From positions 1 to 25,245 of the forward strand of contig NIVC01005134.1 of assembly GCA_002269645.1 (NCBI GenBank): a stretch of 25,245 nucleotides of DNA, given 5' to 3'. The stretch comes from Macrostomum lignano. Lineage: Eukaryota. Position numbers and translations under genes: made by a program. The notes under the pieces are model-generated. The model worked only from the letters and a program-made list of their open reading frames with translations, made no database searches and was not told the origin of the DNA. Within the stretch, counting starts at the first letter, position 1. Each line of letters begins with the position of its first letter. This document shows positions 4,671-25,242 of the stretch, in pieces.

Positions 4671-5558
4671 ATGGCATCATCGAAAGAAGCAAGGATATCA
4701 TCTATTGTCGAGATTGCTACGAATTTATCAAGGAAGGATAAGTCATTAATTGGTTGCCGACTTAAAGACTTCTCGGAGAAGGAATTGGAGGCCTTACATG
4801 ATAGTTTAGAAAAGTTGGATGGGGTGAGTGAAAAGAAGCCGACCACCCAAAAGAGGAAAGAGAAAGGTTATGTGGAGAATGTGCTAGAGACAATCTATCA
4901 GAAGTTAGAGGAGAACGAAGATAGAGGAGTTAGTGTGTGCGTGGAAGCGATTACACAAGGCCTATCCTACGTTGGTCTCAAGCTTGAAGGTACGACCAAA
5001 CATGATTTGATTGAAAGATTTAAGAAAATAAAGTCATCTATTGAAGCTCTATCGATTGCTAAGGCAATGATGCAATTTGAGCAGGGTAGACTTATCTACT
5101 ATTTAAGCACGAAGTATCGAATGACAGAGCGAGAGCTGGCCGACTCATTCAACATAACCAGCCGGAAGGTTGAGGATTATAACAAATACTATCAACTCTG
5201 CCTTGAATACCCGGGTTTAATTTTTTCTACCTATTCAATGGGCATAGTAATTAATTATAGTGCTGCGATTTTCAAGAAGGCAAACAACGATGCCAGGTTT
5301 AAGGAACTTCTCAAGATGCAACACGAGACAGTTGCTTTGGTTTTGAAAGATGGCAGTCCTGAAGAAAAGCAAGTTCACCAGTGGTATGAAGACAGTAAGT
5401 GATTGCTTCACTATTGTGGTAATGTAAGTAAGTTCATATTTTTTAAAGCTTGCTTTTATATTGTAGCTTTCAACGAAGATCCTGACGCGGAAGACAAAGC
5501 TGAGAGCGCCGCCGAAGTCCGAGAGATGTTCGAAGGAGGAAAATGGGTTAAGAAGTAA
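4671..5558 (+). CDS. Hypothetical protein with a putative helix-turn-helix and a predicted 72-nt spliceosomal intron (5395-5466) that adds an acidic 31-aa C-terminus
   Basis: 243-aa ORF; MTERELADSFNITSRKVEDY is HTH-like; splicing GTAAGT...TTGTAG joins in frame to TFNEDPDAEDKAESAAEVREMFEGGKWVKK*. Confidence 0.6.
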
Positions 5559-5612
5559 ATAATTTGCGTGCTATTTCCATAACTATTAAACTGACAATCT
5601 TTTTAGTGTATA

Positions 5613-5712
5613 CATGAATTTTTCTCATAGCTTAGAAAAAATCATGTGTGTGTGTGCACCAAACTCTTTTAGTGTATACATGATTTTTTCTAAGCTATGA
5701 GAAAAATTCATG
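5613..5712. repeat. Perfect 34-bp inverted repeat (5613-5646 / 5679-5712) with a 32-nt spacer; each arm is an imperfect palindrome
   Basis: CATGAATTTTTCTCATAGCTTAGAAAAAATCATG and its exact reverse complement. Confidence 0.9.
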
Positions 5713-6001
5713 TGCTGTTATAGACACAATGCACCGAGGACAGAGAGAAAAATGGCCATTCATCGAATAAAAAGCGTCCATTGTGCTCCAGCGGAGCAGG
5801 CCATTTGTGCCATCGGGCACAGCCCGCGAACCATAGGTTCATTTTTGGATAGAGAATCTTTTGTGTTTGCGTCTTCTTTATTTTCTATACAAAAAAGAGT
5901 AAAAAAGAGCTATAAAATAAAACCGCTCGAGATGCTTGCACACTACCCTTTTCTTTAGTGTCTGCAACTTAATTTTTCTGTTACTAAAAATAGAACAAAA
6001 A

Positions 6002-6412
6002 ATGACACACGTTACACATATGCAAAATCTGAACGAATTGCAGGTAGGAGACCCAGTTGAATACCGAGGTGAGGGTCTTTTTGATGTGGTTGGTACAGCA
6101 GCGAATTTCGTTAAAGACAATATGGGTCTTATAGGCCAAGCAGGCTCTGCAGCAGGTTCTATAACAAACGCTGTAAAGGGCGGAATCGAAGCAGCGAGGG
6201 CAGTAGAAGAACTAAAGAAATTGAGAGAATTTAACGACACCCTCTCACAAATAAAAGCAATAAAAGATTTGAAACTAGCGCAGGAAACAACTCAAGCCGC
6301 ACAACCAACAGAAACCCCCACGAAAAGCACACCAATAAGTAATAAAGATATTCAGGATTTTAATAAAATGTTAACCACAATTAAAGGCGGAAAAGGATTA
6401 AAGAAATTTTAA
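6002..6412 (+). CDS. Putative virion core protein with protease-site-like motifs
   Basis: ATG at 6002 in AAAAATG context; GEGLF and terminal IKGG/KGLKKF motifs typical of adenain-processed core proteins. Confidence 0.6.
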   Translation: MTHVTHMQNLNELQVGDPVEYRGEGLFDVVGTAANFVKDNMGLIGQAGSAAGSITNAVKGGIEAARAVEELKKLREFNDTLSQIKAIKDLKLAQETTQAAQPTETPTKSTPISNKDIQDFNKMLTTIKGGKGLKKF

Positions 6413-6422
6413 CAATATAAAA

Positions 6423-7381
6423 ATGGACTCAGTTAATGACGAAAAACGGCTATATTTTATAGGAGAAATTGTAGATACTTTAAATCTAGACGATAATAAA
6501 CATAGTCACGCAATGTTAAAAAGATTGGATCGCTTAGGCAAAAAATTTGACTACGACATCAATACATTTAAACTTGCTGCGAAATATGCACAAGAAGGAA
6601 GACCAATATCCTTTAAGAATCATGGTAGAAATTATAGGCTGACAGACTCCGATGTAAAATTTTTATTGGAGACTCACACTAAAAAGGACGGCGGGTTGTT
6701 ACCCATTTTACCAATTCTTTTAGGACTTGGGGCAGCTGGAGCAGCTGGTTTAGCAGGAAAAAGAATTCATGATAACATAAAACAGTTAGGAGAATTAAAA
6801 GCAAAAGAAGGGGGTATATTACCCCTCGCAACTTTGCTCCCAATAATTTTTGCAGGAATTGGAGCAGCTGGAGGAGTCGCTGGAGGAGCGGCTGGAATTG
6901 CAAAAGCAGTAAATGACAAAAAAGCCGCGGATGAAAAAGCCAAAAGAGAGGCCGAATTTCAAAGACAGCAAATAACACAGGACGCACAATTCAAACAAAA
7001 ACTTATAGATACCATTAATAGTAGTTCAGCAACAGCAGAGCAAAAAAGAAATGCAGAAGCTAAATTAGCAGCTGGAAAAGGTTTAATTTTAAAAGGAACA
7101 ACCCAAGGAAGTGGAGTTGTCGCAGATAAACTACATGAATTTGGCAAACTTTAGAAAAAACGGGTGAGAAAGCTAAAGGATTTTTTGACAATATTGGATC
7201 CAATTTTAGACCAGCTGTTCAGAAAATTTTTAATAAGTTAGGAAAAGATTTTAACATCATTGAAAAACACGACGGAAGCGGATTATATCTCGAAATGCGA
7301 CCAAAAGCAGGTTCAGGAATTTTCTTAAATTCAAACGTTATGGGCAATGGATTGCTATTACCAAAAGCAGATCTCGAATAG
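6423..7381 (+). CDS. Putative core/membrane-active protein with two adenovirus pX-like peptides; frameshifted near 7150-7200
   Basis: KDGG-LLPILPILLGLGAAG and KEGG-ILPLATLLPIIFAGIGAAG resemble adenovirus pX (GGILPLLIPLIAAAIGA). The continuation in other frames carries GSGLYL, GSGIFL and GNGLLL and ends at TAG 7379-7381. Confidence 0.65.
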
Positions 7382-7464
7382 GCTCCTGGGGGAGGGTCTG
7401 GACACCAAAAACACAAAATTAAAAAATCAATAATTCAAACATTATATAAATTTTATTCTATAAA

Positions 7465-7656
7465 ATGGAAGCAATTTTAGCTCAAATCGACAACCCTGAA
7501 CTTAGAGCACAATTAATAGCTCAAATCGATGCACAACGAATTGCCGATAGGGCTGAAATAGAAGCAAGAATTAGGGCAGAAAATGAGATACGTTTAGAAA
7601 GACAATTAAATGATATTAATAACCCCAACCACAAGGACAAAATGGAGCTGAAGTAA
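7465..7656 (+). CDS. Small coiled-coil-like protein, or a detached N-terminus of PolB
   Basis: 63-aa ORF in TATAAAATG context; charged, Ala-rich helical sequence. Confidence 0.4.
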   Translation: MEAILAQIDNPELRAQLIAQIDAQRIADRAEIEARIRAENEIRLERQLNDINNPNHKDKMELK

Positions 7657-7706
7657 TATATATAGATATAGATATAAATACAAATTATAAAGAATATTTT
7701 AAACAA

Positions 7707-10700
7707 ATGAAAGATAAATTAAAGACCATATTAAACAATTATACTATAAGGCCAAATAACAAACGACAGCCAATTAAGTATAAAATAGAAGTTGAAACAG
7801 AATTTAAAAAACCAAATATTCTTAATGCAAATTCAGAAATTGAAGTAATAAATAACTTTTCACAAGAATCATATAAAACATTATTATCAATGGGAAATTA
7901 CAACAATCAATTCGATCAAATAGAAGCTGAGTTTGATGAATGGATAGATAAGATGACAGAAAACGGATCTGGGTTTATATTTGTATCCTGTAATTCAGCA
8001 ATAGTAAAGATTGCACCTATAGAAATTCTTAAAGGACGATCACATATGAAGCTCAAATTTAAATCACCTATGATTATAAATCCAGACAATAAAGATAATA
8101 AATGTTTATTATGGTGTTTATTAATTCATAAATATCACAATCAAGTAGAATCACACATTAATAAAATATATAATTATAGACAATATGAGGATGAAATAAT
8201 AATGAAAAACATATCATACCCAGTAGCAATAGATGATATATATAAGATTGAAAAAATGAATGGTTTAAATATTAATGTGTTTACAATTGAAGAACCAAAA
8301 GATCTAGAAGAAATTTTAACCGATCCAGAATGGTATAAGAAAAGGTGTTATCTTGTTAAGCCAGCAACTGATATAACAGCACCAGATCAAATCGATCTTT
8401 TGTACATGCAGCGCGAAAATGAAACACATTATATATACATAAAGATATTAGTTCTTTTTAAGAGAAAATAGAAATAGATATCCACTATGTAGAAATTGTT
8501 TCACATTTAAAAAGGATGAAACAGCTCTTAAAAACCACCAACGATTTTGTTTAGATCACAAATTTACTAATGCTATAATGCCAGCATCTGAAGATGCAAC
8601 CCTAAAGTTCCAACAACATTATATGGCAGTTAAAAAACCAATAGTAATATATGCTGATTTTGAAGCAACAAATGTTCCCTTAAAAGAATCACAGACAGTA
8701 TCTGATGGTGAATGCACAAAAAAATTGGCACAACAGTTTCCGAATAGTTATTGTATATATGTACACTCCGTAGCTGATCATATATTTAAATCAAGGATGA
8801 TTACTTACCACGGTAATGATGCAGCTAAGCACATGGCAGAATCATTAGTAAATGTATTTGAATATATTCAAAATCAATATGATAAATTATCAAAAAATAT
8901 TAATATGACAAATAAGGATAGAGACAATTATAAAAATGCAACAAATTGTTTTATGTGCAAAAGATATTTAAGTAAGAAAATAAGATACGAGAACATTGTC
9001 ATCTAACGGAATTATCGAGGGGCAGCATGTAGATCATGTAATGCAAAAGAAGGAAAAGGATGTAAGGAAATACCAGTATTTTTTCATAATGGTTCCGGAT
9101 ATGATTTTCATTTCTTAGTTCGAGAATTGCTTCATTTAGGAAAGGATGAATATGAAATAAATATATTACCTAAAACATCAGAAAATTACATATCAATAAC
9201 ATATGGTAAGAAATACTCCCATCTAGTTTTTCTAGATTCCTTGAGATTCTTATCAACATCTTTAGCAAATGTTGTTTCATCATTAGTTCCAAAACCATGG
9301 GATTTAGAAATAGTAAAGAAAAACTTTCCAATACTATTGAATCGTTTCAAAAAGAAAAACTATCCGAGGAAGAACTAATGCTATTAACTCGTAAGGGCAT
9401 CTATCCATATGAATATGTAACATCTGAAGACGTATTTTTTCATACCGAATTACCCCCATAGAAAAGTTTTATTCAACATTATCACAAACAAATATAAGTG
9501 AATCGGATTATGAACACGCTCAAAAAGTATGGAAATACTTTAATTGTAAAACATTTAAAGATTATCATAATCTATATCTTAAAGCAGATGTTCTCCTATT
9601 AGCTGATGCATTTGAAAACTTTAGGAATCATACATATGAGAATTTTAAAATTGATCCCGCATATTGTTTCAGTGCACCGGGATTAACATGGGCTTGTGGT
9701 TTGAAACATACAGATGTTAAGATTGATTTACTAACTGATCATGATATGTTGTTAATGATTGAGAGAGGAATTCGCGGCGGATTCTCGGGTGTACTAGGAG
9801 ATAGATATACTAAAGTAAATAATAAATATCTACCAAATTATAATAAAAAAGAAAAATCATCATATGTATTATATCTAGATGCAAACAATTTATACGGTGG
9901 TTGTATGAAACAAAAATTACCAATAGCTGATTTCCAATGGGAAGATGACCCCGATTATTACAAAAATATTCCCGAAGGAAGGGGCTGTATCGTAGAAGTG
10001 GATTTGCAATATACTCGGAAGCAAAAGCAAAAACATATAAATATCCTTTAGCTCCAGAGCATTGTTCAGTTAATGAAGATGATTTATCACAAACACAAAA
10101 AGATTATCTTAAAGCAGATAATGCAAAACATCTAGCAACAAAAAAATTAATATTAAATTTACATGATAAGAAAAACTATGTAGTGCATTATAAGCTTCTA
10201 CAATTTTATGAAAAGCAGGGATTAAAAGTGTCTAAAGTACATCGAACAATATCGTTTATTGAGGAAGATTGGTTAGCTAAATATATTGACTTTAATTCAA
10301 ATCAGAGACAGATGTCAAAAACAAATTTTGAGAAAGATTATTGGAAATTAATGAATAATGCTTTTTATGGAAAAACGGTTGAAAATATTAGAGATAGAAC
10401 CCAATTCCATTTAGAAAAGGATATTGATAAAGCAAAGAAATATTTCTCAAAACCTAACTTTAAAGACTTTATAAAATTTGATGATAACTTTATGGGTATT
10501 CATATGAGAAATAAAACAACAAAATTTCTTAAACCAATATTTATTGGAATGGTTGTTTTAGATTATGCAAAGCTAGTAATGTATGAATATTATTATGATG
10601 TTATAAATAAAACATGGCCAGATAACTATCCAATATATGCAGACACCGACAGTTTGGTATTTAAGGTTGAAACAGATGACGGAGCGCGAACCAAAGGTTC

Positions 10701-11409
10701 GATGTCTATAAAGATATGGAAAAAATTAAGGATACATGGATACCTCCGACTATCCGGATAACCATCCTTTAAAATCAGATCAAAATAAAAAAGTTGTACT
10801 TAAAATGAAAGATGAATTAAATAGCAAAATCATAACCGAGTTTATAGCAATAAGATCAAAATGCTATGCATTTAAAGTTTTAGGACAGGAGGGAGAGGTA
10901 AAAAAAATAAAAGGGGTATCAAGGCAGCAGTTAAAAAGATAACATTTGATGATTATAAAAACGTACTTTTAGATTACCTTAATACAATTGAAAATTATCA
11001 TGCTCCACAATATCGATTAAATTCAGATAAGCATCAGATGTTTGTCATCGAGACAGATAAAAAAACATTAAGTCCATTTGATGATAAAAGATATTTAGAT
11101 GATAAAATTAAAACATATCCATATGGTTTAAAAGAAGAGATAAAAAATATGATAAAAGATAAAAAACAAAAAGAAGATATAATAAGCAAATATAATGAAT
11201 ACAAAGAGGCAATAAATAATTATTATTACGATTGTGATTGTGAATCCGAATGTGATTGTGAATATAATACATTTCTAGAATATGAAAAAGATATAGATAA
11301 TTATTATTCAACATTTCCAAAAGAACTTAAAAAATTAAATAAGGAAAAAGTCTTGAATAACTGGAAGAGATTAACAGAAAAATTACTTATCGGGTCTGTA
11401 AAAAACTAA
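7707..11409 (+). CDS. polB: Protein-primed family B DNA polymerase (Polinton type) with an endonuclease VII-like Zn motif; split into at least 7 ORF pieces by small frameshifts
   Basis: Motifs in order: DNKCLLWC, YADFE (Exo I), CFMC..HCHLT..YRGAACRSCN, FHNGSGYDFH (Exo II), RKGIYPYEY, DVLLLADAFENFR, RGIRGGFS, YLDANNLYG (A), KLMNNAFYGKT (B), YADTDS (C), KMKDE, KCY, KIKGV, LSPFDDKR. Confidence 0.95.
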
Positions 11410-11812
11410 AGCATGTAATTGTTTGAGCAAATCATTAACTTCAATTTCATATATTATTGAGCACCAATTATCCTCACAGTCGGCAGGGTAACTTAAACAA
11501 TCCTTTATTTTTTTCCTAAGTTTTTTTATTTTTCTAACAACGATCTATTTCAATTTCAATTACTATTTCAGCATAAAAATTGCTTTTTATAAAACGTTTT
11601 CTTTTATCATCTATCGGATGGGAAACATATCGTATACTCGATAAATATAATATTATTTATTTTTTTATTAATATCATTAAGTTCACGCTCTTTAGTGATA
11701 AGGATTTTTATCGTATCTCATTTTCTTATAAAAAATTTACTTATTCGTCATCCTCCCAAACCGAAGCCAATTTTACAGTCCTATCACTCTTTTTATTTTT
11801 TGTTGTTTTAGT

Positions 11813-12064
11813 TTAAATTGCAACCACTCTCAGACTGTATTTCATAACAAACGCTTTAGGTTTATTAATAACTAAAACAGGAAAATTTTTAACATCATCT
11901 CCGCTTAGACATAAAATTTTTTGCCCATCTAATTGTAAAAATATTGATTGAAGCCCAATAAATTTAACCTGTCTCAAACATATAATATTATATTCTTTAT
12001 TCTCCAACATATTGGGTGTGAGATAATTAATCACATTAGAATCGGTTTTGAACCAGCTCTCCAT
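11813..12064 (-). CDS. Hypothetical protein; probably extends by frameshift to ~11740 and is followed by another fragmented minus-strand ORF to ~11406
   Basis: 83-aa ORF in TAAAAATG context; no recognisable motif. Confidence 0.4.
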   Translation of the reverse strand: MESWFKTDSNVINYLTPNMLENKEYNIICLRQVKFIGLQSIFLQLDGQKILCLSGDDVKNFPVLVINKPKAFVMKYSLRVVAI

Positions 12065-12090
12065 TTTTAATCTAAAAAAATAACAAAAAA

Positions 12091-12369
12091 ATGAAAGACA
12101 TTTATGTTTGTAATAAATGTAACGTGACTATGCACAGAGCTCAAACAGCAAACGGAGATATATATCATATGTGTTATTCATGTTCTAAAATATATCAATT
12201 TGAAAAAACAAAAAAGATTGAAAACTCATATTACTATTTTAAAAACACAATTTTAAGAAATCTTACAAGAGACATTTCTGATCCAATTTTAATTCCCGGA
12301 AATAATGTTTATTTATATAATAACTTTTTCCATTTAAATAAAGGAAAGGGATTAAGTTCGAAAGACTGA
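12091..12369 (+). CDS. Small zinc-ribbon protein
   Basis: CNKC-x17-CYSC; AAAAAATG start. Confidence 0.55.
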   Translation: MKDIYVCNKCNVTMHRAQTANGDIYHMCYSCSKIYQFEKTKKIENSYYYFKNTILRNLTRDISDPILIPGNNVYLYNNFFHLNKGKGLSSKD

Positions 12370-12579
12370 AAGGATTTTAATTTTAGTTGGATATTATTTT
12401 AATTTTCTTATTCGAGAGAATACAAAGTTTATAAGGATAGGTAACATACCTAACGAAATGTTACTGAAAAAGTCATTGGAATTTTTATGTATTGATAAAA
12501 AATTTAAACCTAGGATCAGAGAGAGTTACCACTTTGGGAAGAATATATAACATATGCATTAGAAAAACTAAACAACATT

Positions 12580-13214
12580 AAGTTCTACCGCACTACCTGA
12601 CCGCGGGCTTTGTACCCCAGTACAATAGTTTCGGTTCGTATTCAATGTTTCTATCGGAGGAGCTTTGGGTTTGTCCAAACGCAATTCTTCAATTCCATAT
12701 CGGTAAAAGTTTCAACATCTAAAATTCTATTTCTATCTTTTAAATATTTTTCATATAATCAACCGCGGTTGATAATTCATGAATCGTTATCTCTCCGTCA
12801 TCCAATATTTTTTGCACATATAAATATAATTGATTTTTATATTGTTTTGCAACATCTCTTAAAGATTTATATTTTTCCTTTCTTTTTTTAAGATATAATT
12901 TAATTGCTAAAAGTATTGATAAGTTCTGATCAATTCAAAACCTGATATTGAGCCAATTGAAATACCTAAAAATAATTGAGATAAATTAAGAGTTGGAATA
13001 GATTGTAAAATACCTAAAACGATTACACATAACATTGATAAGCTTCCAAATCCAATATTGAAAAAATCCATATTTCTTATATGGTTTGAAACTCTTCTTA
13101 CTTTTTTAGTATATAAATCATAATCATAGTTAATACGATCAACATTACTTAACATGTGACCTTGCGTTGGTTGAACCGGTCGCGTTCCCTTTTATCTGCT
13201 TCAGATACCGACAT
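12580..13214 (-). CDS. Putative two-pass membrane protein, frameshifted; ends approximate
   Basis: Two hydrophobic segments in ORF 12907-13155; another frame continues as ...QKILDDGEITIHEL..., resembling a motif I recall from Maverick membrane proteins. Confidence 0.4.
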
Positions 13215-13298
13215 TCTCGTCTATTTTTAATAGCACCAAAATGAATTCCCCACGCTCTTTGGGTATTTGCCCGGAGCTTAATAGGTATTGTATTGGAG

Positions 13299-13502
13299 TT
13301 ATTCTTTCTTTTTTCTCCCATTTAAATCCATTTTCCAAAACTCTTGAAGTATAATATGATTTTTTAATAGTTTAATTAATTCTTGAAGCTTCTTATTATC
13401 CTGAACATTTACAGTACTAAATAAAAATTTGGTATGAGATTTGAATGTTTTTATATTTGATTCTTGTTTAGGAATAGGAATAATAACATTATTTTGCCGC
13501 AT
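13299..13502 (-). CDS. Hypothetical protein; probably extends by frameshift to ~13200
   Basis: 67-aa ORF; another frame continues RITPIQYLLSSGQIPKE. Confidence 0.35.
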   Translation of the reverse strand: MRQNNVIIPIPKQESNIKTFKSHTKFLFSTVNVQDNKKLQELIKLLKNHIILQEFWKMDLNGRKKKE

Positions 13503-13584
13503 CGATGGGTTCTACTAAAAGCCATTTTATATAGAAATATTTAATATTTATAGTATATTTTTGTTCGCGACTTAGGCTTTAGCC

Positions 13585-15502
13585 TTAGGCGATTTCGTTC
13601 CGTTCCAAATATGCGGTCGCAGCAAAATCATATCCTGCTGATGTGCTACCACAAACGGCTGCACCACGAATAAAATGTGCAGCATCCGATCCTCCAGTTC
13701 GAGCACCAAAACCCATAAGAGTTCCCGTTTTATCTAAATCTCCCCAAGTTCCACTATCATATGTAAAAAAGTTTTGCCCAATTAGCGTATATGTATTAGC
13801 TGATACATTGTATGTGCTTATTTGATACCAAACTCTTTGATTTAAAATATTAATTTCAAAAAGATGCCAATCGCCGTTATCAATATTAGCATAGGTTATA
13901 GTTTGATCTGCGTCATTAAGAACATCATTACGAGCTGTTGCACCGTCTGATTTTATATTGCTCCAAACAACCCCAACTCTATCATGCCATTCACTCGCAA
14001 ACACAATCAAGCCGGCGCGGGTTGTTAACCCGGATCCAAATTCACTTGTTGGACGTTCGTGACAATATGCATAAAACCAAACCGCATCAGCACCACTTCC
14101 TGTAGCATTAGCAACTCGGAAATAGAAGGAGGCGGAGATATTACGAAAATGGGTGAAATTAAATTGCAACGCTCCAGACTGACCACTTGCTTCATCAGTA
14201 ATTCTAGCTCCATTTTGATAATCAATATAAGTAGCGTTACCAACAAAACTTCCAGTTGGAAAAATATCACCGGCTGTGGTTGGGTTTTGATATCCAGTCC
14301 AATTGCAAATTACAGGCTCGTACAAAGCGGCATCGATTGCAGGTATTCCATCCAATTTTATTTTATCATTAAAAGACATTCGGCCATCCGCCGTTTGTGT
14401 TACTCGCGTATCAACATAACCTTTAGTAACAACAGAACTGTTATTGTTTATAGTAGAGATATTAGTAATTGTATTACCTCCCATATCAATTGATTGATTA
14501 ACCACTCCCAAATTTAAATCAAGAATTGTAAACGTCTGTCTATAAATCTGGAAGGTTGACAGACCCGGGTTGGTTGAACCCGAGGTTGATGTAAGACAGA
14601 ACAATCTGAAATATGAATATGTTTTATCAAAATTTTGTGTGACATTAATTGTTTGAGTTGAGTTATTTATTGCTACAGAACTATCCGCAGGTATTAATAC
14701 GTCCCAACTTGTATTGTCATTACTTCCCTCAAATCGCCATGATGCTGGGTGCTCGGTTGAAGGTGATGGCCTACCACGTAAATCAATTTTATAACACATT
14801 ATTGCGGAAGGGCATTGGACTTGAATCCAATAATCGGTTTGAGTATTATTTGTTGCCCAATCTGTTGCATTATCCATCAAACGCTTTCCAACTTGCAAAA
14901 TCAGTTGTATTAAATGCTGTGCTGCGTATTGCAAAACCATTTCCACTCCAATCTGCATGTAGGTATGTGGCCGTTTCAACCGTTTGGAATCGATCCTGCT
15001 TTAAGGCTCCACCTCCAACTAAATTATCAACTTCGGTTTTGGTATAGGAATCAGTTATATCTCTTTTTAAATTTAAGGAATTATCAACTTCAGTTTTGCT
15101 ATAAGAATCAGTTATATCTCTTTTTAAATTTAGGGAATTATCAACTTCGGTTTTGGTATAGGAATCAGTTATATCTCTTTTTAAATTTAGGGAATTATCA
15201 ACTTCAGTTTTGGTATAGGAATCAGCAACATTCCGTTTTAAATTTAGGGAATTATCAACTTCGGTTTTGGTATAAGAATCGGCCGTATTGCGTTTTAAAT
15301 TTAGGGAATTATCTATTTGAGTTTTGGTATAGGAATCTGCAACATTTCTTTTTAAATTTAGTTTAGTATCAACTTCACTTTTTTTATAACCTTCATCTTC
15401 ATTAATATATCGGTTATCTCCGAATGTAACACTTATTCCACCAGAAGTACCACCACCAGTACTTGATGTTCCGTTCCATGAGGGTGTTCCAGAAAATAAC
15501 AT
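13585..15502 (-). CDS. Fibre/tail-spike-like adhesin (~640 aa): 20-aa repeats, discoidin (F5/8C)-like domain, shaft-like motif, C-terminal L-type-lectin-like domain; one frameshift at ~14870
   Basis: Six YTKTEVDNSLNLKR..DS repeats; WKAFD..NATDWAT...WIQVQ...PASWRFEGSND..WD; IDMGGNTITNI...VVTKGYVD; Q.GALQF...FYFRV...GADAVWF. Confidence 0.7.
15023..15390 (-). repeat. 60-bp coding tandem repeat, ~6 copies, inside the fibre gene
   Basis: Directly visible in DNA and protein. Confidence 0.9.
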
Positions 15503-15531
15503 TTTTACTGTCTATTTTATAGAGTCTAAAA

Positions 15532-15972
15532 TCATCTTAAATACTTCGGGGGGTTCCTTCGAGTTATTGATCGAACCTTTGGTTCGACTCCGTCGATATA
15601 TAAAAAATACAACGCAGCCTGTCCGCAATAACTTTTATCAAAGGTTTGAAACTGTTCGTGATAATCTCCACATAAACGATTTTTAGTATGATTAAATTTG
15701 TCTTTTATTTCCTGTAACGGAGGAAGCGCGTATGAATCAAAAAAATAAACAAGTTTCGGTTTTGAATAAACTGCTGACCAATGAACACCATTTTCTTTTG
15801 TTGTTTCAATATTAACAATGAAAGATCCATATCTTGGTAAGTCTTTTATCTCATCCCGCATAACACATCTGAATGGTTTTATTTTTAACTGCCTCGCCCA
15901 ATTTGTTAATTCGATATTGCTTGTTGTGTCTGTTCCATATCGTTGTTTAAAATCATCCCACGTCATGGTCAT
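15532..15972 (-). CDS. Adenain-like cysteine (maturation) protease
   Basis: GVHW (His), YFFDSY (Asp), Q...SYCG (Gln/Cys) in the Ulp1/adenain order; intact 146-aa ORF. Confidence 0.9.
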   Translation of the reverse strand: MTMTWDDFKQRYGTDTTSNIELTNWARQLKIKPFRCVMRDEIKDLPRYGSFIVNIETTKENGVHWSAVYSKPKLVYFFDSYALPPLQEIKDKFNHTKNRLCGDYHEQFQTFDKSYCGQAALYFLYIDGVEPKVRSITRRNPPKYLR

Positions 15973-15973
15973 T

Positions 15974-16147
15974 TTATGTTCCTGAAAAACTCTTGGTTTT
16001 AGTTAGTTTCGTAGGTGTGGGTTTTAATAGTTCCTTTCGGATTTTTTCTGCCTGTAATTGTTTCAATTTTGTTAGTTCGATTTCATAATTATCCTTTGCG
16101 TTTTGAACTTTTTCCGTTTGTTTTTTTAAAGCATTGTTGTTACCCAT
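15974..16147 (-). CDS. 57-aa Lys-rich protein with an N-terminal MG (possible myristoylation); not in the ORF track
   Basis: My translation: MGNNNALKKQTEKVQNAKDNYEIELTKLKQLQAEKIRKELLKPTPTKLTKTKSFSGT*; fills the gap between the penton and protease genes exactly. Confidence 0.55.
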   Translation of the reverse strand: MGNNNALKKQTEKVQNAKDNYEIELTKLKQLQAEKIRKELLKPTPTKLTKTKSFSGT

Positions 16148-16157
16148 TTTTACAGTA

Positions 16158-16943
16158 CTAAACCTGTTTTATACGTAAAATTATTGTTATTGACTGCCCA
16201 CCAAAACTTATTAATCTATCGCTTTCATCTACAATCCTAATATAAATTGATTGAACATTATATTGATTTAATGGGTAATATATTGGGGTTTGAGGTGATA
16301 CAATCATTTTCTCTCCAATTGGAACAGCAAGAAATGGGATTGAATAAATAATTCCACGTTGAACCAAAACTCCGTTATCGTCTGTTATATAACCACCGTT
16401 TGAAATGTCGGTTGTTATATTAATTGTATTTACTCCACCCTCTATATTTCCAACTGTATCACCGGTGCTTGATGTGGTAACTATTCGGGAATTAAATCCA
16501 AGTATGGTTCTGAGTGAATTTGCAATTGTGAAATCAACCTGATATCCGGATTCGAGTGATAGTGTGAATCTGCCAGACGGTAAATCAACACCTATAACAA
16601 TTGCTCCTGCTACCCAATCTCCATTAGCTGTTAATTCTCCTTCTATATAAGCATTCAAATCAGTATAGCTATACGCACCCGGGCTAACACTAAATGTTGT
16701 CCAATTGGCTCCGGAATCTTTAGAATATCTAAATTGATTATTTGTTGCATTAATTAATTGAGGCATGTTGAAAACCGAAAATAGTATTAAACCTATTTGA
16801 TAACTTAGGCTTTGATCGAGTTGTAATGGATCGCGCAATTGAATCCGTTGCTCGCTGGTTGTCATTATAAACTGTAATGTTGTACTAAATTTTGAATTAG
16901 TTCGATCTACCAATTGTTTTATAGTATTTAAATTTGTAGTCAT
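16158..16943 (-). CDS. Minor capsid protein (penton, single jelly-roll)
   Basis: Polinton penton-like motifs: NNQFRY, PGAYSYTDLN, SLRTILGF, INITTDI, GEKMIVSPQTPIYYPL, IRIVDESDRLISFGG; intact 261-aa ORF. Confidence 0.85.
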   Translation of the reverse strand: MTTNLNTIKQLVDRTNSKFSTTLQFIMTTSEQRIQLRDPLQLDQSLSYQIGLILFSVFNMPQLINATNNQFRYSKDSGANWTTFSVSPGAYSYTDLNAYIEGELTANGDWVAGAIVIGVDLPSGRFTLSLESGYQVDFTIANSLRTILGFNSRIVTTSSTGDTVGNIEGGVNTINITTDISNGGYITDDNGVLVQRGIIYSIPFLAVPIGEKMIVSPQTPIYYPLNQYNVQSIYIRIVDESDRLISFGGQSITIILRIKQV

Positions 16944-16977
16944 TTTTATAGTGGGGAAATCGTGCCATAGGCACGAA

Positions 16978-17770
16978 CTAAGTCTCTTCTTCCTCGTTAT
17001 CTTCTTTTATCAGATCTCTTAAGATTCGATTTTTCCTTTCTAACCTAGGGTTGATATATATATGTTTGTATTGGCTATCATCCCAAATTTTTTTACACAT
17101 ACTTTTAAATGGTTTTGTATCCAATCCAGGATTAAATCTAGCGTGTATATTTTGTAAATCATAATTATCTAAATCAAACATTACACAACAACTTGCATTC
17201 TTTTTTATAATCGATTCTAATTCTCTAAAGGACTGTGTTAGATAAAAAGCTCCATTCCATCTCCTCTACCACTAACAAAAATTTCCTTTTGCAATTCTTG
17301 ATCACCGTCATTAATACAATCATCAAAAATAATTAGTGTTTTATCATTTTTTGGAATTTGATCATAGCCTAATCGGGTTGATACTCTAACAGTTGGGGCT
17401 CGTTCGGTGATGTTTTCTGGTTCGAACCTTTGGTTCGCGGACTCCGTCCGATCTTCTGCCATTTTTTACATAAATCCTCAATGTCATCGAGTGTAAATCG
17501 CGGTTCGTCATCATCCTCATATTGCTCATATGCTCTTAACATTCTAAACAAGACATCTTTTTTTAATTTGTTTTTTAATCCATGTTTAAGAAATTCATAA
17601 TATTTTATTCTAGGTTTATTAGTATAAATTATTAAATTATTATAGTCTAGCATTCCATCGGTTGTTAACAGGTCATAAACAAAGTGTGTTTTTCCTTTAC
17701 CCGACCCACCAATTACTAAACAAAGAAAAGGATCATTTGGAAATATTTTATTGTGTTTTGCTTTTACCAT
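16978..17770 (-). CDS. A32/FtsK-like genome packaging ATPase; two frameshifts
   Basis: Walker A GGSGKGKT, Walker B IIFDD, then GR...FYLTQSF...IKKNA; pieces 17770-17369, 17462-17238, 17181-16978. Confidence 0.9.
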
Positions 17771-17816
17771 TTTTAAAGAAATAATTTAAAGTGGGGCGAC
17801 GGTCGGAGACCTGCAC

Positions 17817-19284
17817 TCATTTTACAATGGTGCGTCCCGAACAACGTGCCATCAGCTTTAGCAATTGACAATATTCCTCTAGAAACAATACGTGGGCGTC
17901 GATTGCCTGATTACCGGTTTTATTAATCTCTAACATATAATTAAGTCCAATATTGGCTACGTTTTCTTTCTGTGCCGTTAGATCATAAACAACCACTGGA
18001 TGATGTTTAGAAACTCTGTGGGTGTGTACTGAGGACGGCATATGCTTCATTTTTGGCATAATCGTGATAATATTTTATAAAATCATTAACATCATTATTT
18101 GCAATATTTAGATTAAGAGGATCTTTAACCGGATAGTATTGGTCATCAACCTGCAGGCGGATATTCTGAACATTAAACTCGTTAATTGCAGCAACTGCGT
18201 TGTCTGTTGCGGTAGCTGCTTGTGCTGCTATGTCACCGATTGAAGCCAATATAAATCCCCATTTGCTCTTTTACTCCTTCTGTTTGTTATCTAAACCAAA
18301 CAAAAATATATCTCACCCGACGTTTTGATGTCAGTATTTGCCACTGGAATGAATCCTGGTTATTATTAATGGTTCGCATAAAATGTCGACGATTCAAATA
18401 AAATATTTCCTGATCATGCGTTAACTGATTATCGATGTGTTTTAAAAGTGGGGCTGTTACCTCAATAGTTGGTACGACTAATTGAATTGAATCTATACGA
18501 ACTGCTATATCGGTTGAAATTGAGGTTCCATAAAGTATCCTAGGCTGATATCCACCAGATATTTGCAACTGTATCCCAAATTTTAATCCTTTCCATACCC
18601 GATTTGGTGAGAAAAACCCAAATAGTGGAAAGATTGAAAAGTCCTGCTCATATGCTGTTGCTGTGGTTAAAACCGCGACTGGGAATTTATTCTGACGATC
18701 TATAAAACCGTGTTAATAGCTTTTGTATTAGTCATAGTGGTTACAACTGGAACTATATTGGTATTAAGGTAAACAATTAGAGCTGCAGTATCTGCACCAG
18801 CTGCGTTTTGTACATTAGGGAAAACTACTGCTTGACCATTACCTTTATCCGGCATCCACCCAACATTATCACCAACTTGTTTTGATAAATAAGTATAATT
18901 TAAATGTTTCAAAACTCCATTAATCTCTGCGGGGTTTGATGATGTCTCAACCTCGCTCCATTAACAGTAGTTGGCTTGGGAAAAACATTTATAAAACCAA
19001 TCATTTTCTATTATTATTCCGGATCGATCTGCGATATCTCCGGCTGCAAGAGCAGTTCCATCATTTCTAGTATATAACCATCTAACACGGAAAAATGCAT
19101 TTTTCATATCCAATATAGTGTTGGTTGCGCCGATGTCAAAAGTTACCGTTCCAGTAGTAAAGTTATTTGAATTATCACTTGTTGGTAGGGTATAATTTAA
19201 ATCTCTTGCTCTGACCTCATTAATATACTGTCGGTGCTTTTTGAAATGAAATTTATCACTCCACATAGTTTTTGTTTCAGCCAT
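17817..19284 (-). CDS. Major capsid protein (double jelly-roll, Polinton type); several frameshifts
   Basis: Five consecutive ORF pieces span ~490 codons; VRYIFVWF, FNVQNIRLQVDDQYYP..LNLN, VVVYDLT; flanked by the ATPase and penton genes. Confidence 0.75.
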
Positions 19285-19318
19285 TTTTTTAAGTTAAAAA
19301 AGTTTTTTATGTTAAAAA

Positions 19319-19977
19319 ATGAGTCAATTTATGGACGTTGATGGAGAGTTAGCGATTTATAAAGAGAAGCAAAGATATTCTGATTTTGTTAGAAATTTAC
19401 AAAAAAGAAAGTTAGGAATACAATTAGCTGGCGAAAGATTTGCTGCTCCTTTTGTTAATCCTATTACTGGGAAAATTAGTGAACTAGAAAAAACAGATAA
19501 AGACTTCTGGAAAAAATTGCTACGAATACTGAGCCAAAAGAGGATGAAATTTTGGATGAGCCGCCTGCTTATGATGTTGATCAAGCTCAATTGAGAGTTG
19601 CAGAGATTAGGGCTGCAGAGAAGGGATGGAGTTGAACAATTTCCAAGAGTACCAGCTAGTATTGCTGTGACAGATTTAGGTAATAATAATTATCGAATTG
19701 GTAGAGTTGATAAAAATCGATGAACTATATAGAGAATTGGGTGGAGCATATAATATTATTATGAACCCTAGGGTAAAATTTAACCCTGATTATATACTAG
19801 GGATGAATTAGTAAGTGCAAAAATTTTTTATGATGAGTTAGGAGGAGCTGTTAAAAATACAAGTTTGTATAAAAGGATTATTTCTATAAATAACAAACCA
19901 GCTGTTGGAGAAGGATTTAAAACTCCTAGAAAACTTGTTTAGCTGCTGCGAAAGCTGCTGGACATACTGGTGTTTAA
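19319..19977 (+). CDS. Polinton conserved protein (core-like), fragmented; end approximate
   Basis: ORF 19319-19594 plus downstream frames giving ...VGEGFKT...LAAAKAAGHTGV*, resembling the L..AS..AGNT motif I recall from Maverick proteins. Confidence 0.45.
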
Positions 19978-20004
19978 TTAATTGTTAAATTTATTTTTTA
20001 TAAA

Positions 20005-20604
20005 ATGGAAACTAAAAAGATTTGTAGTCGATGTAAAGAAGAGAAACCAATGACTAAAGATTTTTTTAGATGGAGAAATGATTCAAAAAAATTTAGAAAT
20101 GATTGTCGATCTTGTGAGAAAGTTATATCAAAACTGTGGAATAAAAACAATAAAGAATATATAAAAAATAAATATCACACTGATGAAAATTACAAACTTA
20201 TTATCACCTCACGAAATAGAATAAATCAACTATTAAAATCAAATAATGCTCGAAAAAATAATCATACTATTGATTACCTTGGTTGCTCAATTGAATTCTT
20301 TATTGATTGGTTAAATTTCACAAAACATTATTATGTTCCAAAAGACTATGGTGGTGCTTTACATATTGATCATTTTATTCCTGCTTCTTCATTTAATTAC
20401 AAAGACGAAGATCATATGAAAAAGTCTGAACATTGGACAAATAAAAGATACTTAGCTGCTATTGATAATAAAACTAAATTTGTTAAACAACCAACAATTG
20501 AAGAATTTGCAAAACAATTGGTGCTATCATGTATTTTTAAGGCTATAAAAAATGAGCAATCATGCGACGCATGCGAACCGAAGGTTCGATCGACGATCAA
20601 TTAG
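20005..20604 (+). CDS. Free-standing HNH endonuclease with an N-terminal Zn finger (putative homing endonuclease)
   Basis: CSRC...DCRSC; YLGCSIE; LHIDHFIPASSF...HWTN...IDNKTK; intact 199-aa ORF. Confidence 0.8.
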   Translation: METKKICSRCKEEKPMTKDFFRWRNDSKKFRNDCRSCEKVISKLWNKNNKEYIKNKYHTDENYKLIITSRNRINQLLKSNNARKNNHTIDYLGCSIEFFIDWLNFTKHYYVPKDYGGALHIDHFIPASSFNYKDEDHMKKSEHWTNKRYLAAIDNKTKFVKQPTIEEFAKQLVLSCIFKAIKNEQSCDACEPKVRSTIN

Positions 20605-22167
20605 TATTTGAAGGAGGATTGTTAGATGTTCAAAAAGGATTAACAAGCTTACCGAGCGTTTTTACTACTGGGAGGTATACAAATGAATTACACATGCCGT
20701 CTTACAACTTCGCAGGTTAACCCGTGGCCTGAGTGAGGAAGGCAATGTCCTTGCTAGTCACTATTTGTGGCGACATCTTCAAATTGCGTGAAACCCGTCA
20801 TACAGCTTCAAGTACCACTTCAATTGAGAAATCTTTTGAAGGAACAGAGGTAACTCCTCTTCCCAATGGTAAAAAGCTTGAAGACATGGTGGCAATGCGC
20901 AGCCAAGCTCCTAAGTATTTTAAATATAAGGAGAAGGTTCAGAGAGCAGACGGAGATGGGCGGTAATCATCGCCGCTTAAGGTGTGCTCCAGCCTCATTC
21001 GAAAGATTGAGGGTAAACTGCCGGGGACTCGCTTAGATTTGAGATTAAATCCTGACAATACTCCAAAATCTGATTCAATTCCAATAAATGGTATTGACTG
21101 GTTAGCATATTATCATGACTTAGCATACAGAGATGCTGACAAGAACCCGCCCGAGGAAGCATTAAGATTAAAACATGAAGCCGATCAAAAAATGATTCAA
21201 GGATTAGATAACTTGCAGGGATTATCGGTAGGGCAAAGATTAACTAGGTGGATGGTTAAAAAGATCTTGCAGTCTAAAGTTAAATTTGGTTTGGGAATTA
21301 ATTACAACCAACATGGAAATAATTGTGTCGAGTGTTTATTATTAAGTGGTGGTGGGTTAAGTTCTGATGAGGCAAAGATTCTTCATAAAGAATATCGAAA
21401 ACCGAAATTTTATAGAAAAATCATGAACTTCAAAAAGAATGAAATTTGGTATGCTGATTTAATGTCGATGCCGAACGAAAGAGGATATAAATATATCTTA
21501 ACCATATTAGATGGTTTTACTCGATACGCGTGGGCTGTTCCTTTAAAATCCAAAAAGGGAGAGGAGGTTGCTGCTGCTTTTAGAAGTCTTGGAGAAAAAA
21601 GTGAACGGTTGTGTGTTGATGAGGAAAAGAATTTTACAATCCTCATATGTATAAATTATATCATTTTGAAAAAGGACAAGAAAGGAAAAAAGACGCGAAT
21701 GGGGAGTATATTAATAAAATTTATTCTATTTATGGAGAAAGTAAAAACGCATTAATAGAAAGATTTAATCGAACTTTAGGTAAGAAATTATGGTTTCAGT
21801 TTAGTCTTAATGGAAACCAAAAGTGGGTAAAAATATTACCAGACGTTGTAAAAGATTATAACAATTCATATCATTCGGCGATAAAGATGACTCCTCAACA
21901 AGCTTATAACAATCCTGAAAATGTTAAGGTTACTTTTGGAGAATTTGAAAAAAAGAAAACTAAAGGTTTTAAGTTGGTGATTCTGTTTATATCTATAAAT
22001 GGAAAGATAAGTTTGAAAAGGGAAGAAAAGGATATTGGAAAATAAGTGAGAAATTTACTATCAGTAAAGTTTTAAATACCAATCCTACAACCTATATAAT
22101 TGCTGATAAGGATGGTGAAGAAATATTGGGTTCTTTTTATGAGAACCAGATAATGTCTGCGAACTAA
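20562..22167 (+). CDS. PLA2 (parvovirus-type) fused to a retroviral-like (rve) integrase; exon 1 20562-20717, exon 2 21021-22167 with ~3 frameshifts
   Basis: Spliced product ELHMPSYNFAG|PGTRLDLRL...PINGIDWLAYYHDLAY (Ca loop plus HD dyad) reads in frame into WYADL, LTILDGFTRYAWAVPLKSK, CVD, IERFNRTL, YNNSYHSAIKMTP, LGSFYENQI. Confidence 0.9.
20718..21020 (+). ncRNA. Group I self-splicing intron, subgroup IC1-like, 303 nt, no internal homing endonuclease gene
   Basis: P AAAUUGCGUGAAA, Q AAUGCGCAGCC, R GUUCAGAGAGCAGA, S AAGGUGUGCUCC. Helices P1, P2.1, P3, P5abc, P6, P7, P8, P9 and P10 can all be paired. The 5' exon ends in U, the intron ends in G, and removal restores the PLA2 reading frame. 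Confidence 0.93.
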
Positions 22168-22443
22168 GTTCAAACAGTTACTTAAGACAACATGGTAGTA
22201 AATTTTTTATTACAAACAAAAACAATATTATTACTATTATTGTTACTAATATTATTATTGACATTTGTTCAACTGTTATCAAACTTAAATTTTCATTAAG
22301 TTCATTAATTGGAACATTTCCGATGTAGGAGTAATCGTGCAGCACGCGAACCATTTCGATTTACCTTCATTTTTTTATATATATTTTTCACAATAAATGT
22401 CGTTTCTGTTATAGAATAATAGTTCATTTTTTAAATATTTTTT

Positions 22444-22758
22444 TCACATAAAAATTTCACTTTCATTCTCTGAATCACTGGTTTCATATGAACTATTTGT
22501 TGATTCGGAATCTGTTGATCTAACCTCCCAATCATCCGAATTTAAATAATCTCCAAGTTGAAATATTAACTCACCCTCTTGTTCTAAATCATACATCTCA
22601 TCTAGCTCTAATGGATAAAGTTTTAGGTCATGCTTGTCGTCATATTTTAAATAAACTTCATCAATTATTCCATTCAAAATATGTTGTTTTATTATCTCTG
22701 CATTTTTAGCAACAGTCTCAAAAGTATCACTAACAGAAAAGGTGTAAACTCGGGTCAT
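22444..22758 (-). CDS. Acidic hypothetical protein next to the right TIR
   Basis: 104-aa ORF, TAAAAATG start, Ser/Glu-rich tail. Confidence 0.55.
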   Translation of the reverse strand: MTRVYTFSVSDTFETVAKNAEIIKQHILNGIIDEVYLKYDDKHDLKLYPLELDEMYDLEQEGELIFQLGDYLNSDDWEVRSTDSESTNSSYETSDSENESEIFM

Positions 22759-22777
22759 TTTTAGTAACAGAAAAAGA

Positions 22778-23126
22778 CCCTTCGCGCCTGCGGCGCGGCA
22801 GCGGGTTATAGAGATTTGGAAGTGTTAGAAGTGTTGGGGGGTGTTGGAAGAATTGGGGAGTGTAGTAGTAGGTAAAACGACGAGTACAGATCAGCCCTTT
22901 TTTAATGGCCGTTTATAAGGTTCCAGAGGGGGGACACGAGGGGAGTGTTGGGAATTAAAAAGAAGTGTTGGGATTGATTTTTATTGTTAGGGGGTTTTTA
23001 GATGTCTTTTTGTGTTAATTGTGATTAGATGTGTTTTTTTATTTACCCCCCGTGTCCCCCTCTAGACCCTTAAAACGGTCATTAAAAAAGTGCTCTGGGT
23101 CTGTACTCGTCTTTTTACCTACTACT
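22778..23126 (-). repeat. Right terminal inverted repeat (~350 bp) with an internal inverted copy of the terminus starting at 22864
   Basis: Reverse-complement match to 3932-4300; ends ...CTTTTTACCTACTACT. Confidence 0.92.
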
Positions 23127-23350: not shown

Positions 23351-23436
23351 AAATGGGACTTATATTATAATGAAAAATTCTAAGAGACCGAGATTCTGAG
23401 GAGGAACTAAAACTGCAAGACGAAGAAACATCTCAC

Positions 23437-25242
23437 CGTAGTCTGGTGGACAGCCTCGTAGGTGAGGGTGCCCGAGCGGGACACGATGCCGATCTTGCCG
23501 GCTTGTGAATATGCCCGGGCATGATGCCAATCTTGCACTGGCCGGGAGCGATCACGCCCGGACAGTTGGGCCCAACTAGGCGACTTTTGGTCTGCTGGCT
23601 GAGCCGGCGGCGCACGCGGACCATGTCGTGCTGCGGGATGCCCTCGGTGATGCACACAATCAGCGGCACCTCGGCGTCCAGAGCTTCGTGTATAGCGGCC
23701 GCCGCGAACGGGGCGGGCACGTAGATAACTGTGGCATCGCACTGGGTAGCTTTGCGCGCCTCCGACACGGTGTTGAACACGGGCAAGTTCAAGTGCGTCT
23801 GGCCGCCTTTGCCAGGCGACACGCCGCCAACCATCCTGGTGCCGTACTCGATTGCCTGGGTGCTGTGGAAGGTGCCCTGCGGGGATTCGGGATGTCAGGC
23901 TTGATGCGGTTGGGGGCATGAGTGAGTGATTGCATTGAGTTGGGATCTGGATAGAATCCAGTTGGGATCTGGATAGAATGCAGTTGGGATCTGGATAGAA
24001 TGCAGTTGGGATCTGGATAGAATCTGGTTGGGATCTGAATAGAATCCTGCTGGGATCTGGATAGAATCCAGTTGGGATCTGAATATAATCCAGTTGGGAT
24101 CTGGATAGAATCTGGTTGGGATCTGGATAGAATCTGGTTGGGATCTGGATAGAATCCAGTTGGGATCTGGATAGAATCTAGTTGGGATCTGGATAGAATC
24201 CAGTTGGGATCTGGATAGAATCTGGTTGGGATCTGGATAGAATCTGGTTGGGATCTGGATAAAATCCAGTAAGGGATCTGGATAGAATCTGGTTGGGATC
24301 TGGATAGAATCTGGTTGGGATCTGGATAGAATCCAGTTGGGATCTGGATAGAATCCAGTTAGGATTTGGATAGAATCCAGTTAGGATCTGGATAGAATCC
24401 AGTTAGGATCTGGATAGAATCCAGTTGGGATCTGGATAGAATCCAGTTGGGATCTGGATAGAATCCAGTTGGGATCTGGATAGAATCCAGTTAGGATCTG
24501 GATAGAATCCAGTTAGGATCTGGAGAGAATCCAGTTGGGATCTGGATAGAATCCAGTTGGGATCTGGATAGAATCCAGTTGGGATCTGGATAGAATCTGG
24601 TTGGGATCTGGATAGAATCTGGTTGGGATCTGGATAAAATCCAGTAAGGGATCTGGATAGAATCTGGTTGGGATCTGGATAGAATCTGGTTGGGATCTGG
24701 ATAGAATCCAGTTGGGATCTGGATAGAATCCAGTTAGGATTTGGATAGAATCCAGTTAGGATCTGGATAGAATCCAGTTAGGATCTGGATAGAATCCAGT
24801 TGGGATCTGGATAGAATCCAGTTGGGATCTGGATAGAATCCAGTTGGGATCTGGATAGAATCCAGTTAGGATCTGGATAGAATCCAGTTAGGATCTGGAG
24901 AGAATCCAGTTAGGATCTGGATAGAATCCAGTTGGGATCTGGATAGAATCCAGTTAGGATCTGGATAGAATCCAGTTGGGATCTGGATTATGGATCCAGA
25001 TGAAACAATAAACCTATTGGGATAGAGACAAGGGCCTAATCTTAAAAATACAGGCAGTATCTAAGAGTGAAGGCGAAATCCATAAGCCTCACCTGCTTGC
25101 CAGTGAAGCCCTGGCAGATGACTCGCGTATCCTTGTTAATAGCCAGGTTGGACGCGAGTGGTCGCATAGTCAGACAGGAGCCGACTAGTTTGCTAGGCGA
25201 GTCTGCTAATGGCCAAAAGTATTCGGAAGAGGCAAACGACAT
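23437..25242 (-). CDS. SUCLG1: Host succinyl-CoA ligase alpha subunit: exon ending at 25093 (5' boundary unclear) and exon 23876-23437; 3' exons not found in the window
   Basis: [19 protein letters not shown]|[25 protein letters not shown]...[11 protein letters not shown]...VGPNCPG...[20 protein letters not shown]; phase-0 GT-AG introns; the 440-nt exon is one base short (GG where GGG is needed). Confidence 0.95.
23938..24990. repeat. Intronic minisatellite, 22-bp unit (GGGATCTGGATAGAATCCAGTT), ~47 copies; each unit holds a CTGGAT-aga-ATCCAG palindrome
   Basis: Directly visible. Confidence 0.95.

Follow-up and report, generated by a model that had tools for sequence, protein, structure and literature searches.

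A Polinton-type element with an interrupted PLA2-integrase gene

The window, by which we mean the whole stretch of DNA analysed here (25,245 nucleotides of a Macrostomum lignano contig), contains an integrated Polinton-type element in which a gene for a PLA2-integrase fusion is split by a group I intron. The main features are as follows.

3932-23126, no strand: Polinton-type element, 19,195 bp, containing 0 GGNCC
3932-4300, + strand: left terminal inverted repeat
8578-11127, + strand: protein-primed DNA polymerase B, pieces in three frames
16158-16943, - strand: penton-like minor capsid gene
17369-17770, - strand: A32-like packaging ATPase, partial
17844-19284, - strand: double-jelly-roll major capsid gene, in pieces
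20005-20604, + strand: HNH-like ORF of 199 aa, free-standing and related to ORFs of giant-virus loci
20556-20597, + strand: inserted hairpin of 42 nt at the exon 1 start, not in other alleles
20562-20717, + strand: PLA2-integrase gene, exon 1, 52 codons counted from an in-frame ATG, final codon Gly (GGT)
20715-21022, + strand: split GGNCC word, GGT before the intron and CC after it (GGT|CC in 46 of 47 intron-bearing copies)
20718-21020, + strand: group I intron, 303 nt, with an IC1-like core (P2, P2.1, P5abc, compact P8, P9)
21021-22164, + strand: exon 2, first codon Pro; PLA2 body, then rve integrase
22778-23126, - strand: right terminal inverted repeat, with complementarity of 79-100% depending on the piece

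The genes of a Polinton/Maverick (pPolB, rve integrase, jelly-roll capsid, penton and A32 ATPase) and terminal inverted repeats are present; no target-site duplication was found around the window element, while the 6-bp duplication is perfect in an intron-less copy. Given several broken reading frames and the missing duplication, the window copy is damaged or misassembled. Its exon 2 frame closes after 244 codons, with the integrase match continuing in other frames; exon 2 is open for at least 382 codons in 14 of 20 copies. The 42-nt hairpin throws an ATG at 20552 out of frame and supplies the ATG at 20562.

Removal of the intron restores the Gly-Pro of the PLA2 loop, as the initial annotation had proposed for a P5abc group I ribozyme in such a gene. 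Across the junction, an unbroken allele matches PF08398 (PLA2) with 34.2 bits, compared with 18.6 for exon 2 alone (cut-off 23.9). Purifying selection acts on the part that codes for PLA2: in 10 distinct copies pN/pS is 0.07 in exon 2 ahead of the first in-frame ATG and 0.30 in exon 1. In parvoviruses, the PLA2 is thought to act in membrane entry (PMC8502044).

The HNH-like ORF was considered as a partner of the intron and rejected: it belongs to no Pfam family, its Atlas neighbours are unnamed, and it is present in the intron-less allele too. Elsewhere in the element, a fibre-like gene (13585-15502, - strand) combines 57-nt repeats with an F5/8 type C (discoidin) domain, and a 36-nt perfect inverted repeat sits within a 66-nt tandem duplication (5592-5714) between the first ORF and the core genes. 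Positions 4202-5972 are missing from the intron-less copy. Hairpins of ~30-42 nt are inserted at several unrelated places in the window (10687, 15569-15595, 17437 and 20556-20597), and the same hairpin occurs in introns of the sister family described below (L022-L049), including peripheral ribozyme loops; it behaves like a tiny mobile palindrome. At three loci (L005, L007 and L012) a region like window 12024-13068 is fused to 20178, the capsid block being deleted and the HNH-like gene cut, a form that from its sequence appears to be a non-autonomous derivative that has multiplied. Beside the right end of the element, amid long tandem repeats, lies a host exon of succinyl-CoA ligase alpha (23433-23878, - strand).

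An IC1-like group I intron with exact ends

An Rfam scan and a search for intron-less alleles, the checks named alongside the initial annotation of a group I intron at 20718-21020, both gave positive results. The model RF00028, the sole Rfam family matched in the window, aligned over its full length at 20708-21011 with 65.4 bits (E 9.5e-15), above the curated cut-off of 50 that defines membership of group I. A degenerate junction pattern search recovered a natural intron-less allele, locus L021, among 25 empty alleles; it aligns to the window through 20716 and resumes at 21021, so the intron ends are exact and precise insertion relative to an empty allele is demonstrated. Every pairing that had been named was found in the sequence (all on the + strand):

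20713-20731: P1, exon end plus internal guide sequence (20713-20717/20727-20731), with U.G at the 5' splice site
20721-20726/21021-21025: P10
20774-20780/20952-20958: P3
20813-20817/20867-20871: P5a, with an A-rich bulge at 20872-20876
20828-20831 and 21001-21004: GAAA loops
20942-20990: P7 guanosine-binding helix (20944-20948/20985-20989), enclosing P3' and P8
20959-20964/20969-20974: P8
21020: terminal G

We compared 48 introns, comprising 20 from the family of the window element (family A), 27 from a sister family (family B, ~65% identical to the window family in the integrase) and one metagenomic sequence; the P8 and P5 columns of the longer family-B introns were left out of the helix comparison. 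P1 is invariant in 48 of 48. P7 occurs in three variants across families, every one fully paired, and compensatory changes on both sides separate the families in P3, P4, the P5 extension and P5b. The earlier description of the intron as intact holds for its core helices, all of which are there, and the U.G pair at the P1 splice site, the G-binding pair of P7 and the terminal G are all present in the window copy; it has to be qualified for two family-A changes, each in 20 of 20 copies (at 20984, the final base of J8/7, G replaces the A of family B; at 20929, within the tetraloop receptor, A replaces U), and because folding of the whole stretch scores only mildly better than shuffles (z -2.35).

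The hallmarks of subgroup IC1 are P5abc with an A-rich bulge, P2 and P2.1, and an L5b GAAA loop with a P6 receptor, and each of these traits was found. The P9.1/P9.2 extension, a Tetrahymena-type feature, is absent, with only 8 bases between P9 and the intron end.

Copies in an animal genome

Exact patterns identified 136 intron starts and 112 intron ends genome-wide. The genome is that of an animal, with 86 Wnt and 150 rhodopsin-type receptor matches among the matches listed, and with an 18S that we take to be bilaterian. A protist contaminant as host is ruled out: intron-bearing copies share contigs with Wnt genes (C506, C952 and C67; ~24 kb apart on C952) and rhodopsin-type receptors.

The initial annotation suggested a ribozyme of rDNA type; an origin of the intron in the host's own rDNA was not borne out. 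No group I match occurs in ~22 kb of host rDNA (18S, 5.8S, 28S and spacer), and a group I core pattern like that of the window is found in at least 120 viral contigs, several of which carry giant-virus capsid and RNA polymerase genes as neighbours. In a genome-wide search 28 of 29,353 candidates were scored with RF00028, and all 28 are Polinton copies. The intron tree, built with viral rows only, joins the two host families (91/98 support) and leaves metagenome contig L067 unplaced, so that no donor can be named. The spacer of the host rDNA repeat also holds a U1 snRNA gene (151.7 bits; L056:6860-7022).

An Eco47II-family nuclease in sister copies

No nuclease gene lies inside the window intron; family B has one in the P2.1 loop (window 20757-20767). 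These family-B introns occupy the same site, measure 836-895 nt, and carry an ORF that continues from the P2.1 loop into the ribozyme core. The ORF matches RE_Eco47II (PF09553) with 29.5 bits (cut-off 25.9) and would encode a PD-(D/E)xK type nuclease of 160 residues, of which E49, D65, E76 and K78 are invariant in 15 sequences. The predicted model (pLDDT 92.9) holds no additional DNA-binding domain, and its best fold match is EcoO109I (Z 9.7, rmsd 3.5 over 158 residues; next match Z 6.8), with AvaII also among the Foldseek matches. EcoO109I recognises RGGNCCY and AvaII GGWCC. Eco47II homologues have been linked to GGNCC "without certainty" (PMC10305163). On family match and model together, the sister-copy nuclease is assigned to the Eco47II restriction family, and its cleavage is predicted.

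A genome search with the nuclease gave 112 matches, of which 75 were placed after short pieces had been left out. Twenty-six are intron-internal (79-100% identical to the query) and 14 lie directly upstream of exon 1 (61-69%), the two groups separating cleanly by identity; for the remaining 35, no splice site is listed in the vicinity. In the window, the HNH-like ORF (20005-20604) occupies the upstream slot, and the window element itself has no nuclease match. A gene inside the intron together with an interrupted GGT|CC is the arrangement of a mobile-intron homing endonuclease, with the target inferred. Differences among family-B nucleases (pN/pS 0.55 over 9 sites) are too few to show selection.

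Outside the host copies, 17 homologues were found at 47-64% identity. Metagenome contig L067 has the same insertion site, intron and nuclease, 12 of 45 homologues examined extend into an intron core, and among 44 PLA2-integrase homologues whose motif can be read, 8 lack the Gly ahead of Pro-Gly-Thr; the arrangement is thus not confined to this genome. Three environmental nucleases fall below the Pfam cut-off (18.6-20.7 bits). Plasmids gave no match and prokaryote genomes two weak ones. Among distant kin, 44 of 51 loci carry a gene with C5-methylase motifs, placed within ~20-60 bases of the nuclease, tail to tail, in 7 loci checked. Five such methylases had no match in the window or in sister loci (the sister elements having been examined in part), and the nuclease thus lacks there the cognate methyltransferase of a type II restriction-modification system.

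Loss of GGNCC and of Gly-Pro

The window element contains no GGNCC, against 12.7-17.3 expected in its 19,195 bp (P 3e-6 to 3e-8). The minimum among 200 shuffles was 10, and GGNCC is the only zero among 256 spaced words, the next lowest ratio being 0.55. A 10-kb family-B tile also has none (5.2-9.4 expected); three such tiles were counted once because they are near-copies. By locus, 19 of 20 in family A and 19 of 28 in family B are free of the word. The intron-less copy, which is young to judge from repeats 99.7% identical and its perfect 6-bp duplication, has 2 in 17,173 bp (12.3-16.1 expected), one of them the empty insertion site.

In control environmental Polinton-like contigs with an unsplit PLA2, 11 GGNCC were counted against 9.3 expected and 9 against 12.3, and 47 viral intron loci contain 317 against 421 expected in total, with one of the 47 at zero. 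The host flanks of the window have 11 in 6,050 bp. Host flanks overall (26 observed) look depleted under an order-2 model (76.8 expected; 29.8 under order 3) because that model overstates the expectation in repeat-rich host DNA. As an independent test of the purge we looked for a long environmental contig with an intron at the same site, and none was present in the viral or metagenome scans: the viral scans yielded introns of giant viruses and two Polinton-like contigs lacking the intron, and the metagenome scan a single contig of 1.3 kb.

Any Gly codon followed by a Pro codon reads GGNCC, so a purge of the word also removes the dipeptide. Across the frames of the elements, Gly-Pro occurs 0 times against 5.1 and 0 against 10.1 expected, whereas Pro-Gly, with 3 and 10 occurrences, is at normal levels. 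A scarcity of Gly-Pro in environmental homologues was set aside since these proteins are kin. With the intron between the Gly and Pro codons, the DNA lacks the site and the spliced RNA has the codons.

The words CANTG, CCNGG and CTNAG are also low in the window element (ratios 0.55-0.63), perhaps the mark of further nucleases, for example that of the HNH-like gene. Three loci with distant nuclease-methylase pairs are strongly depleted of GGNCC (L126, 2 against 23.2 expected; L130, 1 against 20.3; L114, 2 against 10.9), unlike most of the 43 distant-kin loci. At L220, a locus of giant-virus type whose RNA polymerase gene contains a group I intron, the count is 0 against 13.4 expected in 7.4 kb, and this locus may encode a GGNCC enzyme.

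Terminal base, spliced joint and empty alleles

The terminal base of the intron varies in family A, where a hand count gave A instead of G in 58 of 77 ends among those listed; 23 family-B ends are all G. The terminal-A form has a weaker P10 and dominates the contig sets examined. It marks a family-A sub-lineage, with A at 21020 linked to a change at 21023, that has grown to most copies, and it lets splicing in the absence of a terminal G be tested on natural sequences. Seven of the 14 copies with an open exon 2 are A-ended, and among G-ended copies pN/pS of the PLA2 part is 0.05. A coral intron without terminal G still ligates exons (PMC6545197). A joint skipping 20718-21020 was absent from 4 of 4 contig sets (drawn from 23 runs), which is weak evidence because none is on record as RNA; contigs also drop rare forms.

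The junction is GGC|CC, a form of GGNCC, in every one of the 25 empty alleles; these fall into four sequence types, and 24 are known as 23-letter matches alone. GGC makes up 14 of 188 Gly codons in the window element. If the target is strictly GGNCC these alleles are exposed; a preference for A/T in the middle would explain them.

Proposed mechanism and alternatives

The reading we favour, with moderate confidence, is that the nuclease cuts GGNCC and that the element is immune to it through erasure of its sites and concealment of the last one under a ribozyme, with splicing restoring the PLA2 loop. On this view the intron would be half of a restriction system that has no methylase. Sister Polintons encode the Eco47II-family nuclease, either in the P2.1 loop or as the next gene upstream. 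The enzyme would cut the 5-bp word, probably best with A/T in the middle, and the elements would in response have purged every GGNCC, hence every Gly-Pro. A single Gly-Pro, that of the PLA2 loop motif, is kept, with the intron between its codons. Splicing would follow the usual two steps, in which an outside G enters P7 and attacks at P1, and the exons are ligated at the terminal G via P10. Where elements co-replicate, the nuclease would cut intron-less relatives at the insertion site and lead to homing; other site-bearing DNA might also be cut, whether that of competing Polintons, of a large DNA virus or, during a lytic phase, of the host's chromosomes. The window copy would have lost the weapon and kept the shield, an advantageous state as long as its siblings make the enzyme.

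Some of the data count against this proposal, among them the survival of the empty alleles, the terminal A of most family-A ends and the missing spliced joint. Host DNA is rich in GGNCC, so nuclear expression of the nuclease should be toxic. At least one GGNCC is present in 9 of 28 family-B loci (some within host flank), the nuclease frame is open across all 160 codons in only 10 of 27 family-B introns, and giant-virus loci with distant nuclease kin are no more than mildly depleted (371 against 499 expected).

One alternative is an ordinary homing endonuclease, derived from a restriction enzyme and reading a long site at the junction, with GGNCC loss as a by-product of loose cutting at the core. 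The position of the gene, in the intron loop or beside the intron, is that of homing endonucleases, a long site would spare the host, and a PD-(D/E)xK enzyme, I-Ssp6803I, reads 17 bp (PMC3424549). This is nevertheless unlikely in our view: GGNCC is gone regardless of its flanks, and the loss of a 5-bp word argues against a long site, as do junction flanks that differ between families sharing the enzyme and a nuclease model with no extra DNA-binding domain.

Pressure could instead have come from outside, a helper or rival large virus with a GGNCC restriction-modification pair having selected both the purge and the masking intron, with the nuclease a later passenger. The distant kin are indeed nuclease-methylase pairs on giant-virus-type contigs, the window and intron-less copies are purged without carrying the nuclease, and restriction-modification genes have been suggested for this virus group (10.64898/2026.10.13.758929). 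We give this scenario little credence, however, since no helper virus was seen, the catalytic residues are kept at 45-60% identity, and 12 intron-linked nucleases form a cluster with one tail-less nuclease, apart from the methylase-paired ones (94/92 support).

Least credible is that the system worked in a free-living ancestor and is now a fossil, the integrated copies neither splicing nor cutting and the gene being supplied by other copies: the missing spliced joint, the prevalence of terminal A, the broken polymerase, capsid and integrase frames of the window and its lack of a target duplication would fit, but the purifying selection on PLA2 in G-ended copies, the open exon 2 of both G- and A-ended copies and the ligation achieved by the coral intron speak against it, and it bears on present activity rather than on how the anatomy arose.

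Returning to immunity through erased and hidden sites, its broadest form, for which we see about even chances, is a viral self/non-self system in an animal: a methylase-free frequent cutter whose word has been erased, the last and indispensable one being hidden by a ribozyme. Such a system would be a living link from restriction to homing enzymes, with working group I ribozymes, some of them A-ended, at more than 100 animal nuclear sites. The statistics of the genome name the system's own target, which makes it directly testable. A purge over 19 kb implies prolonged contact with the enzyme while the elements replicated, which touches on whether animal Polintons compete as viruses. Both gene positions coexist in one genome, so the system bears on the derivation of homing endonucleases from restriction enzymes and on their entry into introns; it also bears on why introns persist after nuclease loss, immunity being the reason in this case. 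Useful reagents could come of it as well, namely a GGNCC cutter of 160 residues and a ribozyme working in animal mRNA.

Relation to known systems

Protist Polinton-like viruses with group I introns have already been published, as have introns that mask a nuclease target and thereby mediate competition. The view that no Polinton example had been described does not stand: PMC12220804 tabulates 51 RF00028 introns in protist Polinton-like viruses (its text says 53), with rows in its Table S11 for cryptophytes (44), Desmodesmus (2) and Paulinella (5). Like the window intron, these are group I introns in a protein gene of integrated elements, ~300-380 nt long in cryptophytes; they differ in having protist hosts only and in lying in a short gene before the capsid gene, and the portion of that article available to us describes no intron nuclease, target site or purge. 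What the present analysis adds is an animal as host, a restriction-type nuclease in sister copies and the genome-wide loss of GGNCC. A literature search, with most subscription papers outside its range, turned up no publication describing an intron nuclease of Eco47II type, Polintons that have lost GGNCC or animal nuclear group I introns.

In review articles and a survey of databases (PMC3679873, PMC11835236), nuclear group I introns are placed only in microbial rDNA, and those of animals mostly in sponge, coral and placozoan mitochondria; at least 136 in the chromosomes of one animal stand against that distribution. Nuclear rDNA IC1 introns of the Tetrahymena type share with the window intron P2/P2.1, P5abc with its A-rich bulge, the GAAA loops with their receptor and the P7 core, and are confined, as described there, to rRNA genes of microbial eukaryotes (PMC3679873). 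The window intron, by contrast, lies in a viral mRNA and lacks both P9.1/P9.2 and a His-Cys enzyme.

Adintoviruses and Mavericks with PLA2X resemble the element in animal host, pPolB, rve integrase, capsid, penton, ATPase and parvovirus-type PLA2; the available text on them describes no intron or endonuclease, and the PLA2-integrase fusion is the window element's (PMC8502044).

Giant-virus group I introns share a related ribozyme core with the window intron. Those of Chlorella viruses, reportedly group I with homing endonucleases, can be grouped with the case of Bodo saltans virus. There, introns with HNH or GIY-YIG enzymes mask the target, have nuclease-less offspring and are proposed to serve competition between viruses (PMC5871332); as far as that source was available, the enzymes are rare cutters of other folds, with no genome-wide purge, and the setting is not an animal genome. 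Phage PhiPA3 gp210 is likewise an intron-encoded nuclease directed against a co-infecting virus, though it belongs to a bacteriophage and is described as an HNH enzyme that has a single specific target (PMC11620839). I-Ssp6803I and I-Bth0305I have a restriction-type fold encoded in a group I intron, as here, and belong to other families with long targets in bacteria and phage (PMC3424549, PMC3943268).

The closest likeness of the nuclease itself is to Eco47II-family type II systems (PF09553; EcoO109I fold), with which it shares sequence family, fold, catalytic residues and apparent GGNCC target. In the Polintons the enzyme has no methylase partner, and protection would come instead from site loss and an intron, in a eukaryotic virus.
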